64,000 nucleotides of DNA. Source: Clostridia bacterium (lineage in GTDB: Bacteria; Bacillota; Clostridia; UBA1381; UMGS1253). Location: contig JAZSQB010000016.1 of the NCBI GenBank assembly GCA_045537695.1, positions 3,092 to 67,091 on the forward strand. Reading direction: 5' to 3'. The position numbers and the translations under genes are program-made. Shown here in pieces: positions 2,260 to 57,497 of the stretch (position 1 is the first letter of the stretch; each line of letters starts with the position of its first letter). The notes beneath the pieces are model-generated. The model saw nothing but the letters and a program-made list of their open reading frames with translations. It did not search any database and was not told the DNA's origin.

Positions 2260-3456
2260 TCAAAGCAAATTGTATACCTCTTTATTTAAGAGAATATACG
2301 CATTCTGAATCTGCGGGTCAGCAAATTTATAATAGCGCTCGTTACGCAGAGCGTTGGCAATACTCTGACTGACCTCCTCAAGCGGCACATACTCCGTAAA
2401 GCGGTCAGTCACCAGGATAATGTGATACCCAAGCTCGCTTTCCACAATGCCGCTCATCTCGTCTGGTTGGAGCGCAAACGACGCCTTTTCAAAAGCGTTT
2501 ACCATTTCGCCGAGCGTAAAGGTGTACCCCTCTGGGAATTCTTTTAGCCCCATATCCTCGGAATATTGGTGCATCAAGGTATCAAAATCCGCATCGCCGC
2601 GCTCTATGGCACACAGCACGTCCTCCGCCGTTTCCTTTTTCTCTTTTTGCACGCTTTGTGCAAGCGGATAACCACTGTCATCCGTGGTGGCAAAGAAAAT
2701 CTGCTTTGCAGTCACCTTCGGCGTGGAATACAACACAATATTTTGATAATAATAATCAATAATATCCATTTCCGTTACCGGGTCGATAATAATATCCGTC
2801 AGTTTGTCCTTTAAGTACGCCGTTTCCTGCATCCAGTAATAAAAATCGTATGTAATACCGATGGAGGCCAGCTTTTTCACAAAGCTGTCCATTCCGCCAA
2901 AATTGTTGGCATAAATTGCAATTTTTTCCTCAATCTTGTTTTTATCCACACCGTCTACACGAATGCCGGCATCAAGCGCATACTGATGTACAATCACATT
3001 GGCAATGGTTTCCTGCTTGACGAATTCTTTAAATTCCGCATAGGTCGCTTCGTCCATTTCGTCGAGTTCGAGATTGTATTTAAACCAATTCATCATCTGC
3101 TTAAACGTGCTCACGCGCACCGCCTCGCCGTTGACAAGAAACGCAACCTCCTTGCTCATCAAAAGCGACTGCTCCAAATCCTGCACGGTGACAGTCTTGG
3201 TCACATCATCGTAATCGACGTGCATCCCGAGCTTTTCCGAATATTTGCGCAACGGCACATAGGTTCTGCCGTTGTATACAAAATGGTCCATCGGCGTCGC
3301 TTCGCCGTTTAACATAAGCGTCAGCTGTCCCCAAAGTACATCAATGCTCGTCGTCAACGTATCGGCAAACGCCGGCACTGCAAAAAATAACGAAGCGCAA
3401 AGTAATCCTATGATAAATCCCCGTAGGGTTTGATTCGCAAAAAACCTTTTTTTCAT
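2260..3456 (-). CDS. Secreted PrsA/SurA-like peptidyl-prolyl isomerase (parvulin type) with an N-terminal copper-amine-oxidase-like 'stalk' domain
   Basis: The signal peptide is MKKRFFANQTLRGFIIGLLCASLFFAVPAFA. The YNGRTYVPLRKYSEKLG stalk motif and a C-terminal PpiC motif ...GIVESELGYHIILV are present. I prefer the ATG at 3454-3456 (GGAGGTG RBS) over the ORF-track start at 3471. Confidence 0.7.
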   Translation of the reverse strand: MKKRFFANQTLRGFIIGLLCASLFFAVPAFADTLTTSIDVLWGQLTLMLNGEATPMDHFVYNGRTYVPLRKYSEKLGMHVDYDDVTKTVTVQDLEQSLLMSKEVAFLVNGEAVRVSTFKQMMNWFKYNLELDEMDEATYAEFKEFVKQETIANVIVHQYALDAGIRVDGVDKNKIEEKIAIYANNFGGMDSFVKKLASIGITYDFYYWMQETAYLKDKLTDIIIDPVTEMDIIDYYYQNIVLYSTPKVTAKQIFFATTDDSGYPLAQSVQKEKKETAEDVLCAIERGDADFDTLMHQYSEDMGLKEFPEGYTFTLGEMVNAFEKASFALQPDEMSGIVESELGYHIILVTDRFTEYVPLEEVSQSIANALRNERYYKFADPQIQNAYILLNKEVYNLL

Positions 3457-3643
3457 AGTAGACACCTCCAATTATAGTATAACATACATTCTCAGCTGTG
3501 AAAAGTGGTTTATTAGGCACAAAACGGCAAACCCCTTGCGTCCGTTGACTTTACAGGTATTCTAACATTTTAATTACAGCCCTTTTTCCCGAAAGTGTAA
3601 AGCAAATCACTTGCATTTTGAAGTTTTATGTAAACCATTCGTG

Positions 3644-3760
3644 TGTGGATAACTTTTTGTTGTTTTGGAGATTTTATGTGGAAAACTATGTGCAAATGTG
3701 ATAAACTTCGCAAAATCCGTATGTAGAACATATGTTTTTTGTGTAAAACCTCGTGGATAA
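3644..3760. promoter_or_regulatory. Cluster of DnaA-box-like 9-mers in the prsA-like/mreB divergent intergenic region
   Basis: TGTGGATAA at 3644-3652 is a perfect match to the consensus. TGTGGAAAA at 3677-3685 and CGTGGATAA at 3752-3760 have one mismatch each. All three are in the same orientation. Confidence 0.35.
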
Positions 3761-7342: not shown

Positions 7343-8542
7343 ATGAATAAAAATGAAAGAAGAGTCGGCACGGTATCGAGAGGTATTCGCTGCCCTATCA
7401 TCCGCGAGGGAGATGACCTGGCTAAAATCGTTGCAGACAGCGTATTGGAAGCTGCGCAGTACGAAGGATTTGAACTGCGTGACCGCGATGTAATTTCCGT
7501 AACAGAATCCATCGTTGCGCGTGCACAAGGTAACTATGCATCGGTAAACAACATCGCTGAAGACGTCCGCACCAAGCTCGGTGGCGGCACTGTGGGTGTT
7601 ATCTTCCCGATTCTTTCCCGTAACCGTTTTGCAATTTGCCTTCGTGGTATTGCAAAGGGCGCAAAGAAAATTGTTTTGATGCTCAGCTATCCGTCCGATG
7701 AGGTTGGTAACGCACTCATCAGTATGGATAAAATCGACGAGTCCGGCGTAAATCCGTTCTCCGATGTGCTTTCCGAAGCAAAATACCGCGAGCTGTTCGG
7801 CGAAAATGTGCATGAATTCACCGGTGTTGACTATGTGAAATACTACGGTGACCTCATCCGCGAATGCGGCGCAGAAGCAGAAATCATTTTTGCAAATCAG
7901 CCGAAGGCAATTTTAGATTACACAGACCACGTCATCAACTGTGATATCCACACACGCGCACGCACAAAGCGTATTCTGCTCGCCGCAGGCGCAAAAGTGG
8001 TTTGCAGCCTGGATGATATCATGAACGCACCGATTAACGACAGCGGCTGTAACGAAAAGTACGGTCTGCTCGGTTCGAATAAATCGACCGAAGATACCGT
8101 CAAGCTGTTCCCGCGCGAGTGTAAGCCGCTTGTACTGGATATTCAGAAGCGCATCATGGATGCAACCGGCAAGCACGTGGAAGTTATGGTTTACGGCGAC
8201 GGTGCATTCAAAGACCCGCAGGGCAAAATCTGGGAGCTGGCTGACCCTGTAGTTTCGCCGGCATTTACCGACGGTTTGATCGGCACACCGAACGAATTGA
8301 AGCTGAAGTATCTTGCAGACAATGACTTTAAAGACCTTTCCGGCGAAGCACTCAAAAATGCCATTTCCGAAAGTATCCGTAAAAAGGGCGACAATCTGGT
8401 AGGCAACATGGCGTCCCAGGGTACAACCCCGCGTCAGTTGACCGACTTAATCGGTTCTCTCTGTGACCTGACCAGCGGCTCCGGCGATAAGGGTACTCCG
8501 GTCGTTTTAGTACAGGGTTATTTTGACAACTATACAATGTAA
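7343..8542 (+). CDS. CofE-like protein (F420-0:gamma-glutamyl ligase family fold); physiological function unknown
   Basis: 399 aa. ISVTESIVARAQGNY near the N-terminus and SGSGDKGTPVVLVQG near the C-terminus resemble CofE-family motifs. The assignment is from memory of the family, not from a search. Confidence 0.5.
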   Translation: MNKNERRVGTVSRGIRCPIIREGDDLAKIVADSVLEAAQYEGFELRDRDVISVTESIVARAQGNYASVNNIAEDVRTKLGGGTVGVIFPILSRNRFAICLRGIAKGAKKIVLMLSYPSDEVGNALISMDKIDESGVNPFSDVLSEAKYRELFGENVHEFTGVDYVKYYGDLIRECGAEAEIIFANQPKAILDYTDHVINCDIHTRARTKRILLAAGAKVVCSLDDIMNAPINDSGCNEKYGLLGSNKSTEDTVKLFPRECKPLVLDIQKRIMDATGKHVEVMVYGDGAFKDPQGKIWELADPVVSPAFTDGLIGTPNELKLKYLADNDFKDLSGEALKNAISESIRKKGDNLVGNMASQGTTPRQLTDLIGSLCDLTSGSGDKGTPVVLVQGYFDNYTM

Positions 8543-26339: not shown

Positions 26340-27010
26340 AATTCTTAAAGTTCTATAAAATGCGGCCAGAAAAACGGTGGTAATCTGCAATGTTAATTTT
26401 ACGGCTTAAGGTCAGGTAGGCTTTCCCATGCCACTGCTCTTCCGTCGCCGGAAAAGCGGTTTCCCATTAAAGCAGCATACACATACGTTACCGCATATGC
26501 GACCTGACTACCACTGAGTCCGTACCTCAATCCATTGCAAATCAGCGAAGCAACAGTCTAGGGGATTTCCCCGACAGTCACACCTGAACCTTAGCCTCTT
26601 TTGCAAGTTGCGTTTCAAACAGCGATAACCGCTTTGCATCGGCCAACACAAATCGGTCTGTCCGTTATCCCTGCGCAACCCGCTCAAGGCAGGCTACACT
26701 GCACCCAGCGCAAAAAGCACCGAAATACAGGTTTCATCCTAAGTCGTAGAAGCTTACAGAAGGCTTAAGCCTTTTGCAGCGGCAACCACGAGTTTAGGTC
26801 TCCACGGTAAAGGGGATCGACGCCCGCATGCCATTGCGGATCGCCCCAAAACCTTAACTTCCAGCACCCACCCAGAACTGGGCGTTCCACGCAAGCACCA
26901 GAAACTTCATCGATATGCCCTTCAGCGGATTTTTAGGCCCGCCCTGGGAACAGGTAGATCTGACTAGAATACTGCACCACCGCTTTTTTGGCAGCACTTC
27001 ACACTAATGC
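26340..27010 (-). ncRNA. ole: Large structured ncRNA, candidate OLE (ornate, large, extremophilic) RNA
   Basis: About 660 nt with no ORF of 60 aa or more on either strand. There are many strong local helices and a dedicated promoter. The order ncRNA - small TM protein - dxs - tlyA matches the synteny of OLE. No RNase P or tmRNA signature is present. No covariance-model search was run. Confidence 0.55.
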
Positions 27011-34008: not shown

Positions 34009-35562
34009 TCACTTGCCAAGAGATTTTTTACTTTCCACAATGACCTCTTTATTGTAGCAAGCAAACATTGCATTAACGCATTCTTTATCCGGCTTTTTCG
34101 TCAGCAAGCTGACAACCGGTACCAATATAAGTCCGCCAAGCATTGCAATCGCGCCGCAGTTTACCGGCGACTGGAGAATTGCCGGAAAGATCGGTCTGAA
34201 AAACATATTTGCAAGCATCAGTCCGCCACCGAATACAAAGCTTACCCACACTGCCGATTTTGTCGCACGCTTCCAGTACAAACCAAACAGGAAAGGCGCT
34301 AAAAACGCACCGGCAAGTGCGCCCCAGGATATACCCATCATATCTGCGATAAAGCCGAGGCTGGACTGGTTGAGCGCAATAAATGCCGAAATCGCAACAA
34401 ATACCACAATGAGTACGCGCATAACCAAGACCTGTTTTTTCTCACGCATGCCCTTTACAAGGTGGTCTTTGATCATATCCAGCGTCAATGTAGACGAAGA
34501 TGTAAGCACCAAAGACGAAAGTGTGGACATGGACGCCGAAAGCACCAATACAATCACAATGCCAATCAAAACATCCGGAAGATTCGAAAGCATCGCCGGA
34601 ACAATGGCATCAAATCCGCCGACCGGCGTTCCTGCCGCCGTAAGCTGCATTGCTTCGCTTGTGCCGGTCAACAGTCTGCCGAAACCGCCGAGGAAGTAGC
34701 ATCCGCCGGCAACAATAATGGCAAATACCGTCGAAATAATTGTCCCCTTCTGAATGTTCTGCTCACTCTTAATCGAGTAGAACTTCTGCACCATCTGCGG
34801 AAGACCCCAAGTGCCAAGCGAGGTTAAAATCACCACAAACAAAAGTCCGAGCGGGTCGGGACCGAAGAAGGAGTTAAACGCACCCGGCACCATGCCTTCC
34901 ACATGAACCTCCGCAAGCTTGTTCAGCGCCTGCGTAAAACCGCCCTGTCCGTGCAGTACCGCTGCAATGACTGCGATGATGCCGCCAATCATAATCAAAC
35001 CCTGAATAAAATCATTGATTGCCGTTGCCATGTAACCGCCGGCAATCACATAGATACCTGTCAGTACCGCCATAATAATGACGCATACCGAATAGTCAAT
35101 GCCCGGAAACGCCATGGAAAACAATCGGGACAATCCGTTGTAGAGCGACGCTGTGTACGGAATCAAAAAAATAAACACAATCACAGACGCCGCAATTTTC
35201 AGTGCCGTGCTTTCGTAGCGTTTTCCAAAAAATTCCGGCATGGTCGCACTTTGCAAATGCTGCGTCATCAGCCTTGTTCGTCTGCCGAGCACCTTCCATG
35301 CCAGAAGAGAGCCGAGCACTGCGTTGCCGATGCCAATCCATGTGGCGGCAACACCGAACTTCCAACCGAACTGTCCTGCGTATCCGACAAAGATAACTGC
35401 AGAAAAGTAACTTGTGCCGTACGCAAACGCCGTCAGCCACGGTCCGACATTTCTGCCGCCGAGCACAAATCCGTTTACGTCCGTTGCCCGCCGGCGACAG
35501 ACAATGCCGACGCCGATCATGATAGAAAAAAATACGATGAGGAGTGAAACTTTAATTAACAT
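34009..35562 (-). CDS. Sodium:solute symporter family (SSF) transporter, substrate unknown; predicted Tyr or an aromatic compound from the T-box
   Basis: 517 aa with about 13 TM segments and an SSF-like pattern (GGRNVGPWLTAFAYGTSYFSAVIFVGYAG). It sits directly behind a T-box leader. Confidence 0.75.
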   Translation of the reverse strand: MLIKVSLLIVFFSIMIGVGIVCRRRATDVNGFVLGGRNVGPWLTAFAYGTSYFSAVIFVGYAGQFGWKFGVAATWIGIGNAVLGSLLAWKVLGRRTRLMTQHLQSATMPEFFGKRYESTALKIAASVIVFIFLIPYTASLYNGLSRLFSMAFPGIDYSVCVIIMAVLTGIYVIAGGYMATAINDFIQGLIMIGGIIAVIAAVLHGQGGFTQALNKLAEVHVEGMVPGAFNSFFGPDPLGLLFVVILTSLGTWGLPQMVQKFYSIKSEQNIQKGTIISTVFAIIVAGGCYFLGGFGRLLTGTSEAMQLTAAGTPVGGFDAIVPAMLSNLPDVLIGIVIVLVLSASMSTLSSLVLTSSSTLTLDMIKDHLVKGMREKKQVLVMRVLIVVFVAISAFIALNQSSLGFIADMMGISWGALAGAFLAPFLFGLYWKRATKSAVWVSFVFGGGLMLANMFFRPIFPAILQSPVNCGAIAMLGGLILVPVVSLLTKKPDKECVNAMFACYNKEVIVESKKSLGK

Positions 35563-35603: not shown

Positions 35604-35898
35604 AAAAAATCGCCCTCTGAAATCAATCAGAGGGCGAGAATTCCAATCCCGCGGTACCACCTCAGTTCACTGTTTTCTCACGGAAACAGCCTTTTAGAGT
35701 ACGACGCCTCATCTACGCTATACCCCTGCGCTATAACGGGCGCCCCCGTGACAGCCTACTAAAATCGCTTCGTTCGGTGCCCGACTCCGGAAATGTATTC
35801 AGCCTTGCGCCGCCTTACTGTCTCACACCACCCGACAGCTCTCTGGAAGGTAAAACGCATGCCTACTTGTTCTCCATCACAGTCTTTCACTGGTTTGT
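35604..35898 (-). promoter_or_regulatory. T-box riboswitch leader; the specifier codon reads UAC (Tyr)
   Basis: Read on the minus strand: K-turn GUGAUGGAGA, AGUA, AG-bulge/distal loop CCAGAGAGCUGUCGGGUGGUGUGAGACAG, and specifier loop GAA-UAC-A (codon at 35795-35797). The T-box sequence is AACUGAGGUGGUACCGCGGG (35648-35667). The terminator is UCGCCCUCUGA...UCAGAGGGCGA followed by UUUUUU (35604-35637). Confidence 0.85.
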
Positions 35899-43810: not shown

Positions 43811-43895
43811 GCGGATGTGGCGAAATTGGCATACGCGCAAGATTTAGGTTCTTGTGTCCCGAGACGTGCAGGTTCGACCCCTGTCATCCGCACCA
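43811..43895 (+). tRNA. tRNA-Leu (anticodon UAG)
   Basis: 85 nt. Acceptor arms GCGGATG/CATCCGC, anticodon stem-loop CAAGA-TTTAGGT-TCTTG, a long variable arm, T-arm GCAGGTTCGACCCCTGT and an encoded CCA. Confidence 0.95.
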
Positions 43896-55438: not shown

Positions 55439-55648
55439 TTAGTCGGCATGGAACATCTTATCTTTAAACAGAAGTGTAATGCACCAAAGCGCGCCAATGC
55501 CCACCAGCGTAAAGATAATGCGCGTAAACATCGCATCCGGTCCACCAAAGATTGCCGACACAAAGTCGAACTGAAAAAGACCGATAGAGCCCCAGTTGAG
55601 TCCGCCGACAATCACCAAAAGTAAAGCGATCGTATCTAAAATTGCCAT
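55439..55648 (-). CDS. DUF378 family small membrane protein
   Basis: MAILDTIALLLVIVGGLNWGSIGLFQFDFVSAIFGG... matches the DUF378 pattern. A GGAGG RBS lies 8 nt before the ATG at 55646-55648. The longer ORF-track start lacks an RBS. Confidence 0.75.
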   Translation of the reverse strand: MAILDTIALLLVIVGGLNWGSIGLFQFDFVSAIFGGPDAMFTRIIFTLVGIGALWCITLLFKDKMFHAD

Positions 55649-55776
55649 ATCAAAAACCTCCATATTATAAATTTTTGGGCTGACCTTACTATATGCAAAA
55701 GCCGCAAAATATATGCATGGAATTTTTGGAAATGTAATTTTTGTCGAAAAATGCAAACCGATTTTTAAAAATATAT

Positions 55777-55955
55777 TTGCAGTATGTCGATTTCTGTGCT
55801 ATACTGTACTTGTCACTCAACTGAATACGTCCAAAATTCGGCTGCGTTTTGGTAAAAACGCAGGCCTGGTTTTCATATGCCGTTTTTTGGACATGTGTTG
55901 AGTGACATCAGACCTCGCCGCGTTTTTCTGCGCGGCTTCGGTCGCGCATTTTTTT
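55777..55955 (+). promoter_or_regulatory. Promoter plus a structured leader of about 140 nt with mutually exclusive terminator and antiterminator helices (unclassified riboswitch-like element)
   Basis: The promoter is TTGCAG (55777-55782), a 17-nt spacer, then TGcTATACT. A long three-tier hairpin follows (P1 GTCACTCAAC 55812-55821 / GTTGAGTGAC 55897-55906). Then GCCGCG...CGCGGC competes with the terminator GCGCG-gcttcggt-CGCGC followed by A and T7 (55930-55955). Confidence 0.5.
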
Positions 55956-55978
55956 ATTTCATTAAAGGAGATGTCACC

Positions 55979-56122
55979 ATGGAAAAACAGTATTTTGAAG
56001 TATTCAACAAAATCACAGATATTATCGAAGACTTAAAGAAATTGCAAACGGAAATGGAAGAAATGTACATTTCCTCCAAGCAAAAAGAAACCGCACAGTA
56101 CGGACACTGTGCGGTTTTATGA
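55979..56122 (+). CDS. Hypothetical 47-aa protein
   Basis: An AAAGGAG RBS lies 8 nt upstream. It reads MEKQYFEVFNKITDIIEDLKKLQTEMEEMYISSKQKETAQYGHCAVL, a predicted single amphipathic helix. The 3' end overlaps the terminator hairpin. Coding status is unproven. Confidence 0.35.
   Translation: MEKQYFEVFNKITDIIEDLKKLQTEMEEMYISSKQKETAQYGHCAVL
56088..56118. terminator. Bidirectional terminator shared by the small ORF and the SPFH gene
   Basis: AAACCGCACAGTacggacACTGTGCGGTTTT. Confidence 0.7.
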
Positions 56123-56124
56123 TT

Positions 56125-57054
56125 TTATTTATCCTTTTTCAAAACTGTGCCAATAGAGGCGGAAAGTCCGGCAATGCCCTGCAGATCGGACGGAATAATC
56201 AGCTTGGTTGCCTGTCCGTCTGCCACCTTTTCCATCGTTTCCAACGAACGGATGGCAAGCACGCCCTCACCCGGCTGCGCTTCGTTAATCAAGCGAATAC
56301 CCTCTGCCGTTGCCGTCTGAATTTTCAAAATGGCTTCCGCTTCACCTTCCGCACGGCGGATTTGCGCTTCTTTTTCAGCCTCCGCTTCTAAAATCGCGGC
56401 GGTTTTTCTTGCTTCTGCGGACAGAATCATGGATTCCTTCTCACCTTCAGCCACCAGAATGGTCGAGCGCTTCTCACCCTCTGCCTTCAAAATACTTTCA
56501 CGACGTTCACGCTCTGCCTTCATCTGCTTTTCCATGGCATCCTGAATCGCCTTCGGCGGCATAATGTTTTTCAGCTCCACGCGGTTAATCTTAATGCCCC
56601 ACGGGTCAGTTGCATCATCCAAAATCGCGCGCATCTTGGTATTGATGGTGTCTCGCGAGGTCAGTGTCTGGTCAAGCTCCAAATCACCAATAATGTTTCG
56701 AAGCGTCGTTGCCGTCAAATTCTCAATCGCAGACATTGGATGGTCTACGCCGTACGCATACATTTTCGGATCGGTAATCTGGAAATACACAACGGTGTCA
56801 ATCTGCATCGTTACGTTATCCTTGGTAATTACCGGCTGCGGCGGGAAATCCACCACTTGCTCTTTTAAATTCACATTTTTGGCAATGCGTTCAATAAACG
56901 GCACCTTGATATGCAAGCCCACATTCCAGGTCGCCTTATACGCACCAAGGCGCTCTACAACGAACGCATGTGCCTGCGGCACAATTTTGATATTTGCCAC
57001 AACCACAATCAAAATAAACAAAAACAATGTAAAGACAAAACCTATACCTTCCAT
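56125..57054 (-). CDS. SPFH/Band-7 (stomatin/QmcA-like) membrane protein
   Basis: An N-terminal TM segment, then an SPFH core (IVPQAHAFVVERLGAYKATW...), then a Glu/Ala-rich coiled coil. Confidence 0.85.
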   Translation of the reverse strand: MEGIGFVFTLFLFILIVVVANIKIVPQAHAFVVERLGAYKATWNVGLHIKVPFIERIAKNVNLKEQVVDFPPQPVITKDNVTMQIDTVVYFQITDPKMYAYGVDHPMSAIENLTATTLRNIIGDLELDQTLTSRDTINTKMRAILDDATDPWGIKINRVELKNIMPPKAIQDAMEKQMKAERERRESILKAEGEKRSTILVAEGEKESMILSAEARKTAAILEAEAEKEAQIRRAEGEAEAILKIQTATAEGIRLINEAQPGEGVLAIRSLETMEKVADGQATKLIIPSDLQGIAGLSASIGTVLKKDK

Positions 57055-57071
57055 AACAATACCTCCTTAAT

Positions 57072-57497
57072 TCACTTTTTCAGCTCTACACGAGCAGTTA
57101 CGCCCCTGATTTCACGAATAGTAACCACACTGCCCTCTGCAATCGTTTCTGCACCAATTGCCCGCGCCTTCCACTCAAACCCATAGATAGACACACGACC
57201 GCTATTTTTTAAATTGTCTATCGGCTCAATGACAATGGCATCCTGTCCGATAAATCGGTCCGCATTTGTTTTTTCCTCTTTGACCTTTAAAACCTTTTTC
57301 ACCAGACCTCTGGTAGAAAACAACAAAACAGCAGAAGCGATGATAAAGACAATCATCTGCACCGCAGCGCTTTCCACAAAAAAGGAAACCACCATAGAAA
57401 CCACCGCTGCCGCACCAAACCAGATACATACCAATCCAGGTACCCCAGCTTCAATCACAAATAAAACAATCGCGGCTACCAACCAAAATAACTGCAT
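57072..57497 (-). CDS. NfeD family membrane protein
   Basis: Three TM segments plus a C-terminal OB-fold region (GRVSIYGFEWKA...). It sits upstream of its usual SPFH partner. Confidence 0.8.
   Translation of the reverse strand: MQLFWLVAAIVLFVIEAGVPGLVCIWFGAAAVVSMVVSFFVESAAVQMIVFIIASAVLLFSTRGLVKKVLKVKEEKTNADRFIGQDAIVIEPIDNLKNSGRVSIYGFEWKARAIGAETIAEGSVVTIREIRGVTARVELKK

Follow-up and report, generated by a model that had tools for sequence, protein, structure and literature searches.

In the PyrR-dependent pyr leaders and in the expression platforms of OFF-riboswitches, an anti-antiterminator layer sequesters the 5' strand of the antiterminator and lets the terminator form. The rep genes of pT181, pIP501, and pAMbeta1 are controlled by countertranscript-driven attenuation, in which the antisense RNA is encoded in cis. 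The aprE, ermC, and ompA leaders carry 5' stabilizer stem-loops, for which a hairpin beginning at the transcriptional start (+1) is the hallmark, and the pH-responsive alx element is a kinetic leader that needs no ligand and controls translation, not termination. The infC-rpmI-rplT leader of B. subtilis (L20 leader, RF00558) is a protein-dependent transcription attenuator with the macromolecule L20 as effector, in which a leader terminator is formed (PMC1865079). Here we describe the 5' leader of a small-protein gene from a Clostridia bacterium, located on a 64,000-nucleotide (nt) stretch of contig JAZSQB010000016.1 (assembly GCA_045537695.1). This whole stretch is called the window in the following, and positions refer to it. 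Since evidence for the helices B:C, C:D, and D:E was found across variants of the leader, we read its sequence as a chain of four mutually exclusive helices (A:B, B:C, C:D, D:E) over five consecutive segments that pair only with their neighbors. A:B is the apical part of a long hairpin at the 5' end, C:D a predicted antiterminator, and D:E an intrinsic terminator. We consider it probable (roughly 60%) that the leader is a functional transcription attenuator of this kind, which gates the small-protein gene and whose output is set by closure of the 5' hairpin.

By analogy, the closest functional counterpart is the L20 leader of B. subtilis. It has a similar length of about 200 nt, and it shares the refolding of long-range helices between antiterminator and terminator and the premature termination predicted here. 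The leader in the window gave no RF00558 match, however, and showed no sequence likeness to the L20 leader; its gene does not encode a ribosomal protein, and the acidic 47-amino acid (aa) helix that is encoded instead would be an unlikely RNA binder. A chain of mutually exclusive helices is also present in the pyr leaders and in OFF-riboswitches, but there the anti-antiterminator is held by a defined ligand or protein site of conserved sequence, while here the partner B is buried in a very stable 5' hairpin and no binding motif is conserved. As in the plasmid countertranscript systems, an occupied 5' part of the leader would free a downstream segment, and the terminator would form just 5' of the Shine-Dalgarno (SD) sequence. 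In contrast to these systems, no antisense promoter is conserved, and the search of plasmid records gave no member of the ORF (open reading frame) family. The hairpin starts at +1 without a single-stranded 5' overhang, like those of aprE, ermC, and ompA, which are short and simple, however, and are followed neither by a terminator nor by conserved downstream complementarity. As for alx, the outcome could hinge on pausing and on the order of co-transcriptional folding, and a U5 run lies at the decision point; in sequence and structure the alx element is unrelated to this leader. Judged by sequence, the leader belongs to none of these systems, as their covariance models did not match and their defining motifs are absent.

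The 4227 covariance models of Rfam 15 were used at gathering thresholds and in permissive scans. At the gathering score, no match was obtained in the leader of the window or in the leaders of eight homologous loci. The permissive scan of 55600–56250 returned terminator-like chance matches only (E ≥ 0.16) and no T-box (RF00230) even at E ≤ 10, and permissive scans of two homologous leaders gave unrelated matches that differed per variant. The initial annotation, made from the sequence of the window, had not been able to place the leader in a riboswitch class, and this agrees with the inconsistent, chance-level matches for these three variants. A literature search found no specific described equivalent. 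The leader is a candidate for a class of cis-regulatory RNA outside Rfam, a terminator/antiterminator leader coupled to a new small-protein family.

Architecture of the Leader and Its Conservation

The leader is preceded by a sigma-A-type promoter with an extended −10 element, which was detected by a promoter scan at 55776–55805 (TTTGCA-18-TGcTATACT, or TTGCAG-17). Promoter and leader lie on the plus strand throughout. G55812 is the predicted +1. The end of the −10 element and the first base of helix P1 are separated by 6 nt in each of the nine variants scanned, so P1 opens at +1. Folding predicted a long irregular hairpin of 95 nt (55812–55906) with three helices: P1 (55812–55821/55897–55906), P2 (55829–55836/55885–55892), and the apical P3, which is A:B (55840–55850/55855–55866). 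An asymmetric internal loop of 18 nt is present on the 3' side (55867–55884). The minimum free energy (MFE) for 55808–55985 was −68.6 kcal/mol (z = −6.74), and none of 200 shuffled sequences folded as well. The z-scores of the hairpin in nine variants ranged from −6.1 to −10.1. These z-scores and, more strongly, the conservation with covariation in relatives exclude chance.

Twelve distinct leaders from contigs of other family members and from re-examined metagenome loci (handles starting with L) were compared, namely those of the window, L081, L123, L127, units 2 and 3 of L128, L215, L216, L217, L219, L120, and L122. The primary sequence of the hairpin could not be aligned across them, and its length and topology varied between simple unbranched three-tier hairpins of 95–103 nt and branched hairpins of 142–150 nt. 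Despite this, the elements followed in the same order in all twelve variants. The hairpin starting at +1 behind an extended −10 promoter carries the apex GGYAAAAA(U/C)GC, which is followed on the 3' side by a single-stranded stretch of 5–16 nt. After a short A-rich linker comes segment C, which ends with GC(G/A)UUUUU (GCGUUUUU in the window), then the terminator with a tract of U6–7 and usually a cUUCGg or CUCCG loop, and, 20–60 nt further on, the SD sequence and the start codon. The initial annotation had named conservation and covariation of the helices in relatives as a check, and the architecture was indeed kept in the twelve variants with compensatory changes.

The linker between P1 and segment C (55907–55910 in the window) is A-rich and partly conserved as (A/G)CAA(C/U)AA(U/A)(C/A) ahead of GGRG in most variants. 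This A-rich form is replaced by AUCAGACC in the window and L123. The linker may be more than a spacer.

L081 (GCA_054295285.1) retained the gene order NfeD–Band7–small ORF–leader–DUF378–SLH protein. Compared to the window, its −10 element is identical, two pairs of P1 are changed in a compensatory manner, and a G-C pair of the terminator is exchanged for A-U. The sequences of P2 and P3 are wholly different, yet an equivalent long hairpin is formed (z = −7.1). In 894 kb of Clostridia loci, the pattern GCGTTTTT..CTTCGG..T6 was confined to leaders upstream of this ORF family. Its 77 matches in the viral collection were due to chance, and none of them adjoins an ORF of the family.

Competing Helices

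Segment B (55853–55873) consists of the A5 run, the 3' strand of P3, and the beginning of the internal loop. Its complement is segment C (55909–55927; CAGACCUCGCCGCGUUUUU, including the conserved GCGUUUUU), which can pair with either B or D. When C was allowed to pair with the whole hairpin, the best duplex fell on B in every variant examined. In the window this duplex had −19.4 kcal/mol, and 2 of 300 shuffles were as good. Energies in nine variants were between −15.2 and −21.4 kcal/mol (0–5 of 300 shuffled C segments as good), and two further variants reached −18.1 and −19.7 kcal/mol. The helix comprises 8–16 bp. Within an ungapped core of 10 pairs, 97.8% of the positions were paired, a level reached by none of 500 shuffles, and four of the five variable pairs showed changes on both sides. 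Slid registers of the core were only 39–67% paired. Covariation extended to the outer part of the helix, where GGAG, GGAA, GGGG, or GGGA in C goes along with CUCU, UUCC, or CUCC in B. The mean energy was −18.2 kcal/mol for cognate B:C, −11.7 kcal/mol for non-cognate B:C, and −11.5 kcal/mol for the hairpin's own A:B. After removal of the 5' half of the hairpin, the MFE structure was a B:C helix abutting the complete terminator in all 11 variants tested. The asymmetric internal loop is explained by this pairing, as it is the unpaired part of B. Competing helices had already been proposed in the initial annotation, and they are real, but the main conserved one, between C and the internal loop plus the 3' strand of P3, was overlooked. 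The covarying B:C pairing offers precise mutations for testing.

The antiterminator C:D (55911–55943) is a two-part hairpin of 10 bp, in which GCCGCGU pairs with GCGCGGC (inner part, 55917–55923/55930–55936) and GACC with GGUC (outer part, 55911–55914/55940–55943). It was evaluated by energies against shuffles, not by column covariation. C:D was the MFE choice in the window and had −14.3 kcal/mol (null −6.1 ± 2.0, p = 0.002). It beat shuffled C in 8/9 variants and was the MFE structure in 6/12. Through the GGAG of C it also takes up the terminator loop (CUUC/CUCC), and this role as a partner of GGAG explains why the loop is conserved.

The terminator D:E (UGCGCGGC-UUCG-GUCGCGCA, 55929–55948) has 8 bp and a cUUCGg loop and is followed by U7, which extends to 55955. 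Over 11 sequences, 95.8% of its 9 pairs were paired, with changes on both sides in 6 of them, and none of 500 shuffles was as good. In 6/12 variants the terminator was the MFE choice. An attenuator needs an intrinsic terminator between promoter and start codon, which is present here and covaries, and an alternative helix that sequesters the 5' strand of the terminator, for which conservation is indicated by the energies. All elements named in the initial annotation (promoter, three-tier hairpin, antiterminator, terminator, SD complement, ORF) are present in the sequence. Its view of a genuine cis-acting leader, in which terminator and antiterminator compete for the same bases ahead of a real small gene, is supported.

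A further pairing proposed there would sequester the SD region. The SD sequence GGAG, the spacer GAUGUCAC, and the AUG occupy 55967–55981, and GUGACAUC (55902–55909), which includes the 3' strand of P1, can pair with the spacer (55970–55977). This duplex had −13.8 kcal/mol, matched by 0.4% of the shuffles (p = 0.004). Only the window and L123, its closest relative, showed a significant pairing; in L081 it was weak (p = 0.10), and six other variants lacked it. SD sequestration was rejected as a feature of the family for this reason; where it is present, it may either add a further layer specific to the lineage or be incidental.

Proposed Mechanism and Alternative Explanations

In the attenuator that we propose, a closed hairpin, with P1 and P2 locking A:B, would leave C free to pair with D once D emerges. 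The terminator could then not nucleate, and read-through would follow (ON). If the hairpin is open or its 5' half is unavailable, C would invade B with the single-stranded internal loop as a toehold. The B:C helix would stack on the full terminator, and transcription would stop at about 55949–55955 (OFF). The conserved U5 of C may act as a pause site at the decision point. No promoter was detected between the leader terminator and the start of the ORF, so the ORF should be expressible solely via read-through.

For the OFF state, hairpin closure would have to be prevented or undone, since B:C is costly in the full leader (see below) and the geometry bars full B:C as long as P1 and P2 are closed. 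Given the lack of a conserved ligand-binding core and the far greater stability of the closed hairpin, the trigger acting on the 5' hairpin would most likely be a macromolecule or a physical or kinetic input, a small metabolite being less likely. This role could fall to a protein or RNA factor or to a helicase or chaperone; temperature, a pause at the conserved U5, or a missing 5' end could play it as well, as could the capture of nascent C in trans by the exposed B loop of leaders that were terminated before. A cis-antisense RNA was rejected as a general mechanism, as no antisense promoter is conserved. The design, with a five-segment chain, a hairpin at +1 as putative sensor, and no conserved ligand pocket, is unusual and would make the leader suitable for testing whether attenuation can be driven by factors, by the kinetics of folding, or by self-titration.

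Several observations weigh against this attenuator. Forcing B:C in the full leader costs 17–22 kcal/mol compared to the MFE structure, so that the OFF state needs extra input or may never form. The A5:U5 part of B:C is invariant. C:D in L127 was not above shuffles (p = 0.11), and its register varies among the variants, which prevented column-wise scoring and is the reason why energies had to be used. Only 12 variants were available, several of them related by descent. Termination and read-through are both inferred steps. Unit 2 of L128 consists of promoter, hairpin, C, and terminator without an ORF, which fits a stand-alone RNA. Finally, in 29 of 32 metagenome loci the ORF is directly preceded by a promoter, and no such leader is present. 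As most metagenome members of the family lack it, the leader is dispensable for the gene. More family members than those found should carry it, since many over-long ORF calls in the protein database contain the translated terminator as '..DFG..HAFF' immediately ahead of the true start.

The L128-type contigs bear on the explanation that survives best beside the attenuator, a stand-alone or dual-function small RNA (sRNA). According to it, the major product would be the terminated transcript of about 144 nt with hairpin, single-stranded C, and terminator. It would work in trans, possibly also on nascent copies of itself, and the ORF would be expressed only from leaky read-through. In L128 the leader occurs in tandem with a period of about 350 nt (3127–3760): a 5'-truncated unit directly after mgtE, which folds as B:C plus terminator, is followed by the complete ORF-less unit and then by the ORF-linked unit. 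B:C of the orphan unit (CACAAAUUCC/GGGGUUUGUG) is compensated in its own way. Cross-pairing between this unit and the neighboring ORF-linked unit is kept at about −15 kcal/mol, compared to −17 to −20 kcal/mol for the cognate pairings. The same array is present in L130, and shorter ones in L131, L132, and L134; copy number varies, and the gap is 875, 525, or 246 nt. These units favor an sRNA, as does the terminator being the MFE choice in half of the variants, and B:C in trans would not be in topological conflict with a closed hairpin. However, every other unit lies directly 5' of an ORF of the family, with a conserved SD sequence and no intervening promoter, the orphan unit is a strain-level tandem duplication, and no other target of such an sRNA is known. 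We consider an sRNA as main function unlikely.

The elements could also be constitutive and not form a switch. The 5' hairpin would then guard the mRNA against 5'-end-dependent decay, expression would be fixed at a low level by a leaky terminator, and the alternative pairings would have no role of their own. The start of P1 exactly at +1 in all nine variants scanned is consistent with this, as is the stability of the closed hairpin, which exceeds that of the alternative by 17–22 kcal/mol. But it would leave three features unexplained: compensatory changes preserve a B:C helix of 8–16 bp, the internal loop on the 3' side remains unpaired and keeps its complementarity to the GGAG of C, and C:D extends over the terminator loop in almost every variant. 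A purely constitutive function seems quite improbable in view of these features.

It is very doubtful, although conceivable, that the leader works as a self-titrating sense-sense attenuator. Here, terminated leaders would build up as a small RNA, and their exposed internal loop and apex (segment B) would capture nascent C in trans and force the terminator, resulting in negative feedback or dosage control at the RNA level. Neither a protein nor a metabolite nor an antisense gene would be required, and the closed hairpin would be no topological obstacle in trans. Orphan leader units such as unit 2 of L128 would act as additional repressors.

The initial annotation had called the leader riboswitch-like. 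In a small-molecule riboswitch the long hairpin would be the aptamer, and the ligand-bound state would set the choice between terminator and antiterminator. The location in the 5' untranslated region (UTR), the competing helices, the strong structure, and the covarying conserved architecture are typical of riboswitches, and the lack of a match to a known class would suit an orphan class. A ligand pocket was not found, as loops and junctions of the hairpin are not conserved in sequence, length, or topology, and no nucleotide of an internal loop or junction is shared by the 12 variants. The only conserved bases (GGYAAAAAUGC, GCGUUUUU, GGAG/CUCU, and the terminator loop) sit in the mutually exclusive helices. 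Moreover, the hairpin itself varies from 95–103 nt unbranched to 142–150 nt branched. P1 does not overlap with the antiterminator, so a P1 stabilized by a ligand would lack a direct route to the expression platform, and the downstream product is an acidic helix of 45 aa, not an enzyme or transporter. Since no ligand-binding core is conserved, a small-molecule riboswitch is highly unlikely, and this part of the earlier description had to be given up.

A type I toxin-antitoxin locus or a mobile inverted-repeat element (MITE/REP), to which a small ORF behind a highly structured 5' UTR and a weak promoter-like antisense match, seen in L123 as well as in the window, might point, is extremely improbable, since the peptide is acidic and hydrophilic without a membrane helix, the antisense promoter is not conserved in the other seven variants, the 64-kb window holds no second copy of the element, which has one fixed position relative to one gene family and evolves in a compensatory manner, and the ORF family had no match in phage, plasmid, and viral collections.

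The Small-Protein Gene and Its Family

The ORF at 55979–56122 (plus strand) has 47 codons and encodes a predicted single-helix protein. As the initial annotation had stated, it is tiny and ends inside the next terminator (56087–56118), the 3' half of which makes up its last codons. It is not an orphan. With the 47-aa ORF as query, a word-indexed protein search gave nothing beyond its own public 81-aa over-call, and because of this an exhaustive HMMER search was needed. This search yielded 75 cluster representatives at E ≤ 1e-3, nearly all of 37–70 aa, and a profile search extended the family to at least 610 clusters of proteins of about 40–50 aa from gut, rumen, termite, and fermenter Clostridia. 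The family was absent from the viral, phage, and plasmid collections searched. The consensus is M-x-DYKxMYFxLFNKITDxIEELKxxQxxxEEMYI, with a conserved core from residue 1 to about 33, while the protein tails are dictated by the terminator that overlaps the 3' end of the ORF. Between the window and its L081 orthologue, 10 of 30 aligned codons differ only synonymously. AlphaFold2 with 67 sequences predicted one continuous helix (pLDDT 87). On these sequence data, we concluded that the ORF is a real gene of a large unannotated family.

No curated match above cut-off was obtained for the ORF in Pfam-A, NCBIfam, PHROGs, or PDB, and the database names of family members are only 'hypothetical protein'. 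Weak local matches to positions 311–340 of NF005320 (PRK06851.1-6, hypothetical protein) were seen for 28 of 39 members, with E-values down to 1e-4 and scores far below the cut-off of 556 bits, and 13 of 39 members matched phrog_5861, for which no function is given (E = 9e-5). In the public annotation, the gene appears as an orphan of 81 aa (P0001, 55877–56122, plus strand), whose start lies within the leader hairpin and whose frame runs on across the terminator. This mis-called gene is the 47-aa member of a family that has no name, domain model, or solved structure. A leader peptide or in-frame upstream extension was rejected, as it has no SD sequence and its frame differs among the variants.

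Some members of the family show other arrangements. L101 and L112 have a short CCUCC...GGAGG hairpin just before the SD sequence in place of the long leader. In L220 (1–303), the 40-aa protein and the 30 nt next to the SD sequence are as in L216–L219, while the leader is replaced by an unrelated sequence with a different hairpin; from the sequence, this is a natural leader swap. In the termite gut contig L107 (1–1031), the gene is located beside a divergent gene for an XRE-type HTH protein of about 70 aa, and the module is present in two tandem copies. L106 contains two copies of the small-protein gene (2149–2259 and 2980–3186), about 0.9 kb apart. The 649-aa protein P0125 holds seven stretches that resemble the family motif. 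P0122 (L123–L126; ORF 846–992 in L123) reads an in-frame TGA as W ('..KKAQWRLSLGVFS'), while table 11 gives 39 aa; this reading is probably a gene-calling artefact due to an alternative code and not real recoding.

Genomic Context

The leader and the ORF are located between two neighbors on the minus strand, a DUF378 gene (55439–55648; Pfam E = 4e-25) and the SPFH/Band-7-NfeD pair (56125–57497). According to a terminator scan, the terminator at 56087–56118 that overlaps the last ORF codons is bidirectional and is common to the ORF and the convergent SPFH/Band-7 gene. The synteny of the SPFH protein was uninformative: none of 80 genome loci held either the RNA or the ORF, and the protein is too conserved to single out close relatives. 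Among relatives of the neighboring SLH-peptidase, synteny was kept in L081 only, while L082–L087 were rearranged.

An exact match to the Spo0A-box core TGTCGAA (consensus from PMC3485338) is present at 55742–55748 on the plus strand, 70 nt 5' of +1, within a conserved block TGTCGAAAAATGYAWA. The exact box occurs in the same orientation at −70 in the window and L123 and at −81/−82 in L081 and units 2 and 3 of L128. The background is 0.12 boxes per kb, and 5 of 10 leader promoters have an exact box within this block. L127 and L215 lack the box, and L216, L217, and L219 have a degenerate form of it, for which reason we treat it as a side lead: this candidate site suggests control of the small-protein gene by Spo0A in the subclade that carries the box. 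The control of the gene seems tight and varied, as some lineages use the leader, at least one other (L107) has a gene for an XRE repressor next to it, and Spo0A possibly takes part, and this points to a dose-sensitive regulatory protein. If both self-titration and the Spo0A lead were true, a single-helix protein of gut Clostridia would be controlled in a pulse-like manner when stationary phase or sporulation begins.

Other structured RNAs were found at some distance from the leader. L081 contains a Gut-1 RNA (RF01706, 64 bits) at 7746–7825 (minus strand) near a TspO gene, a match that was not seen in the window at the gathering score. The window itself harbors a full-length ornate large extremophilic (OLE) RNA (26361–26996, minus strand, 480 bits), which marks its source as one of the OLE-carrying anaerobic Firmicutes. 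Also present in it are a T-box leader (35627–35889, minus strand, 109 bits) upstream of the ORF at 34009–35562, and a tRNA at 43811–43892 (plus strand).

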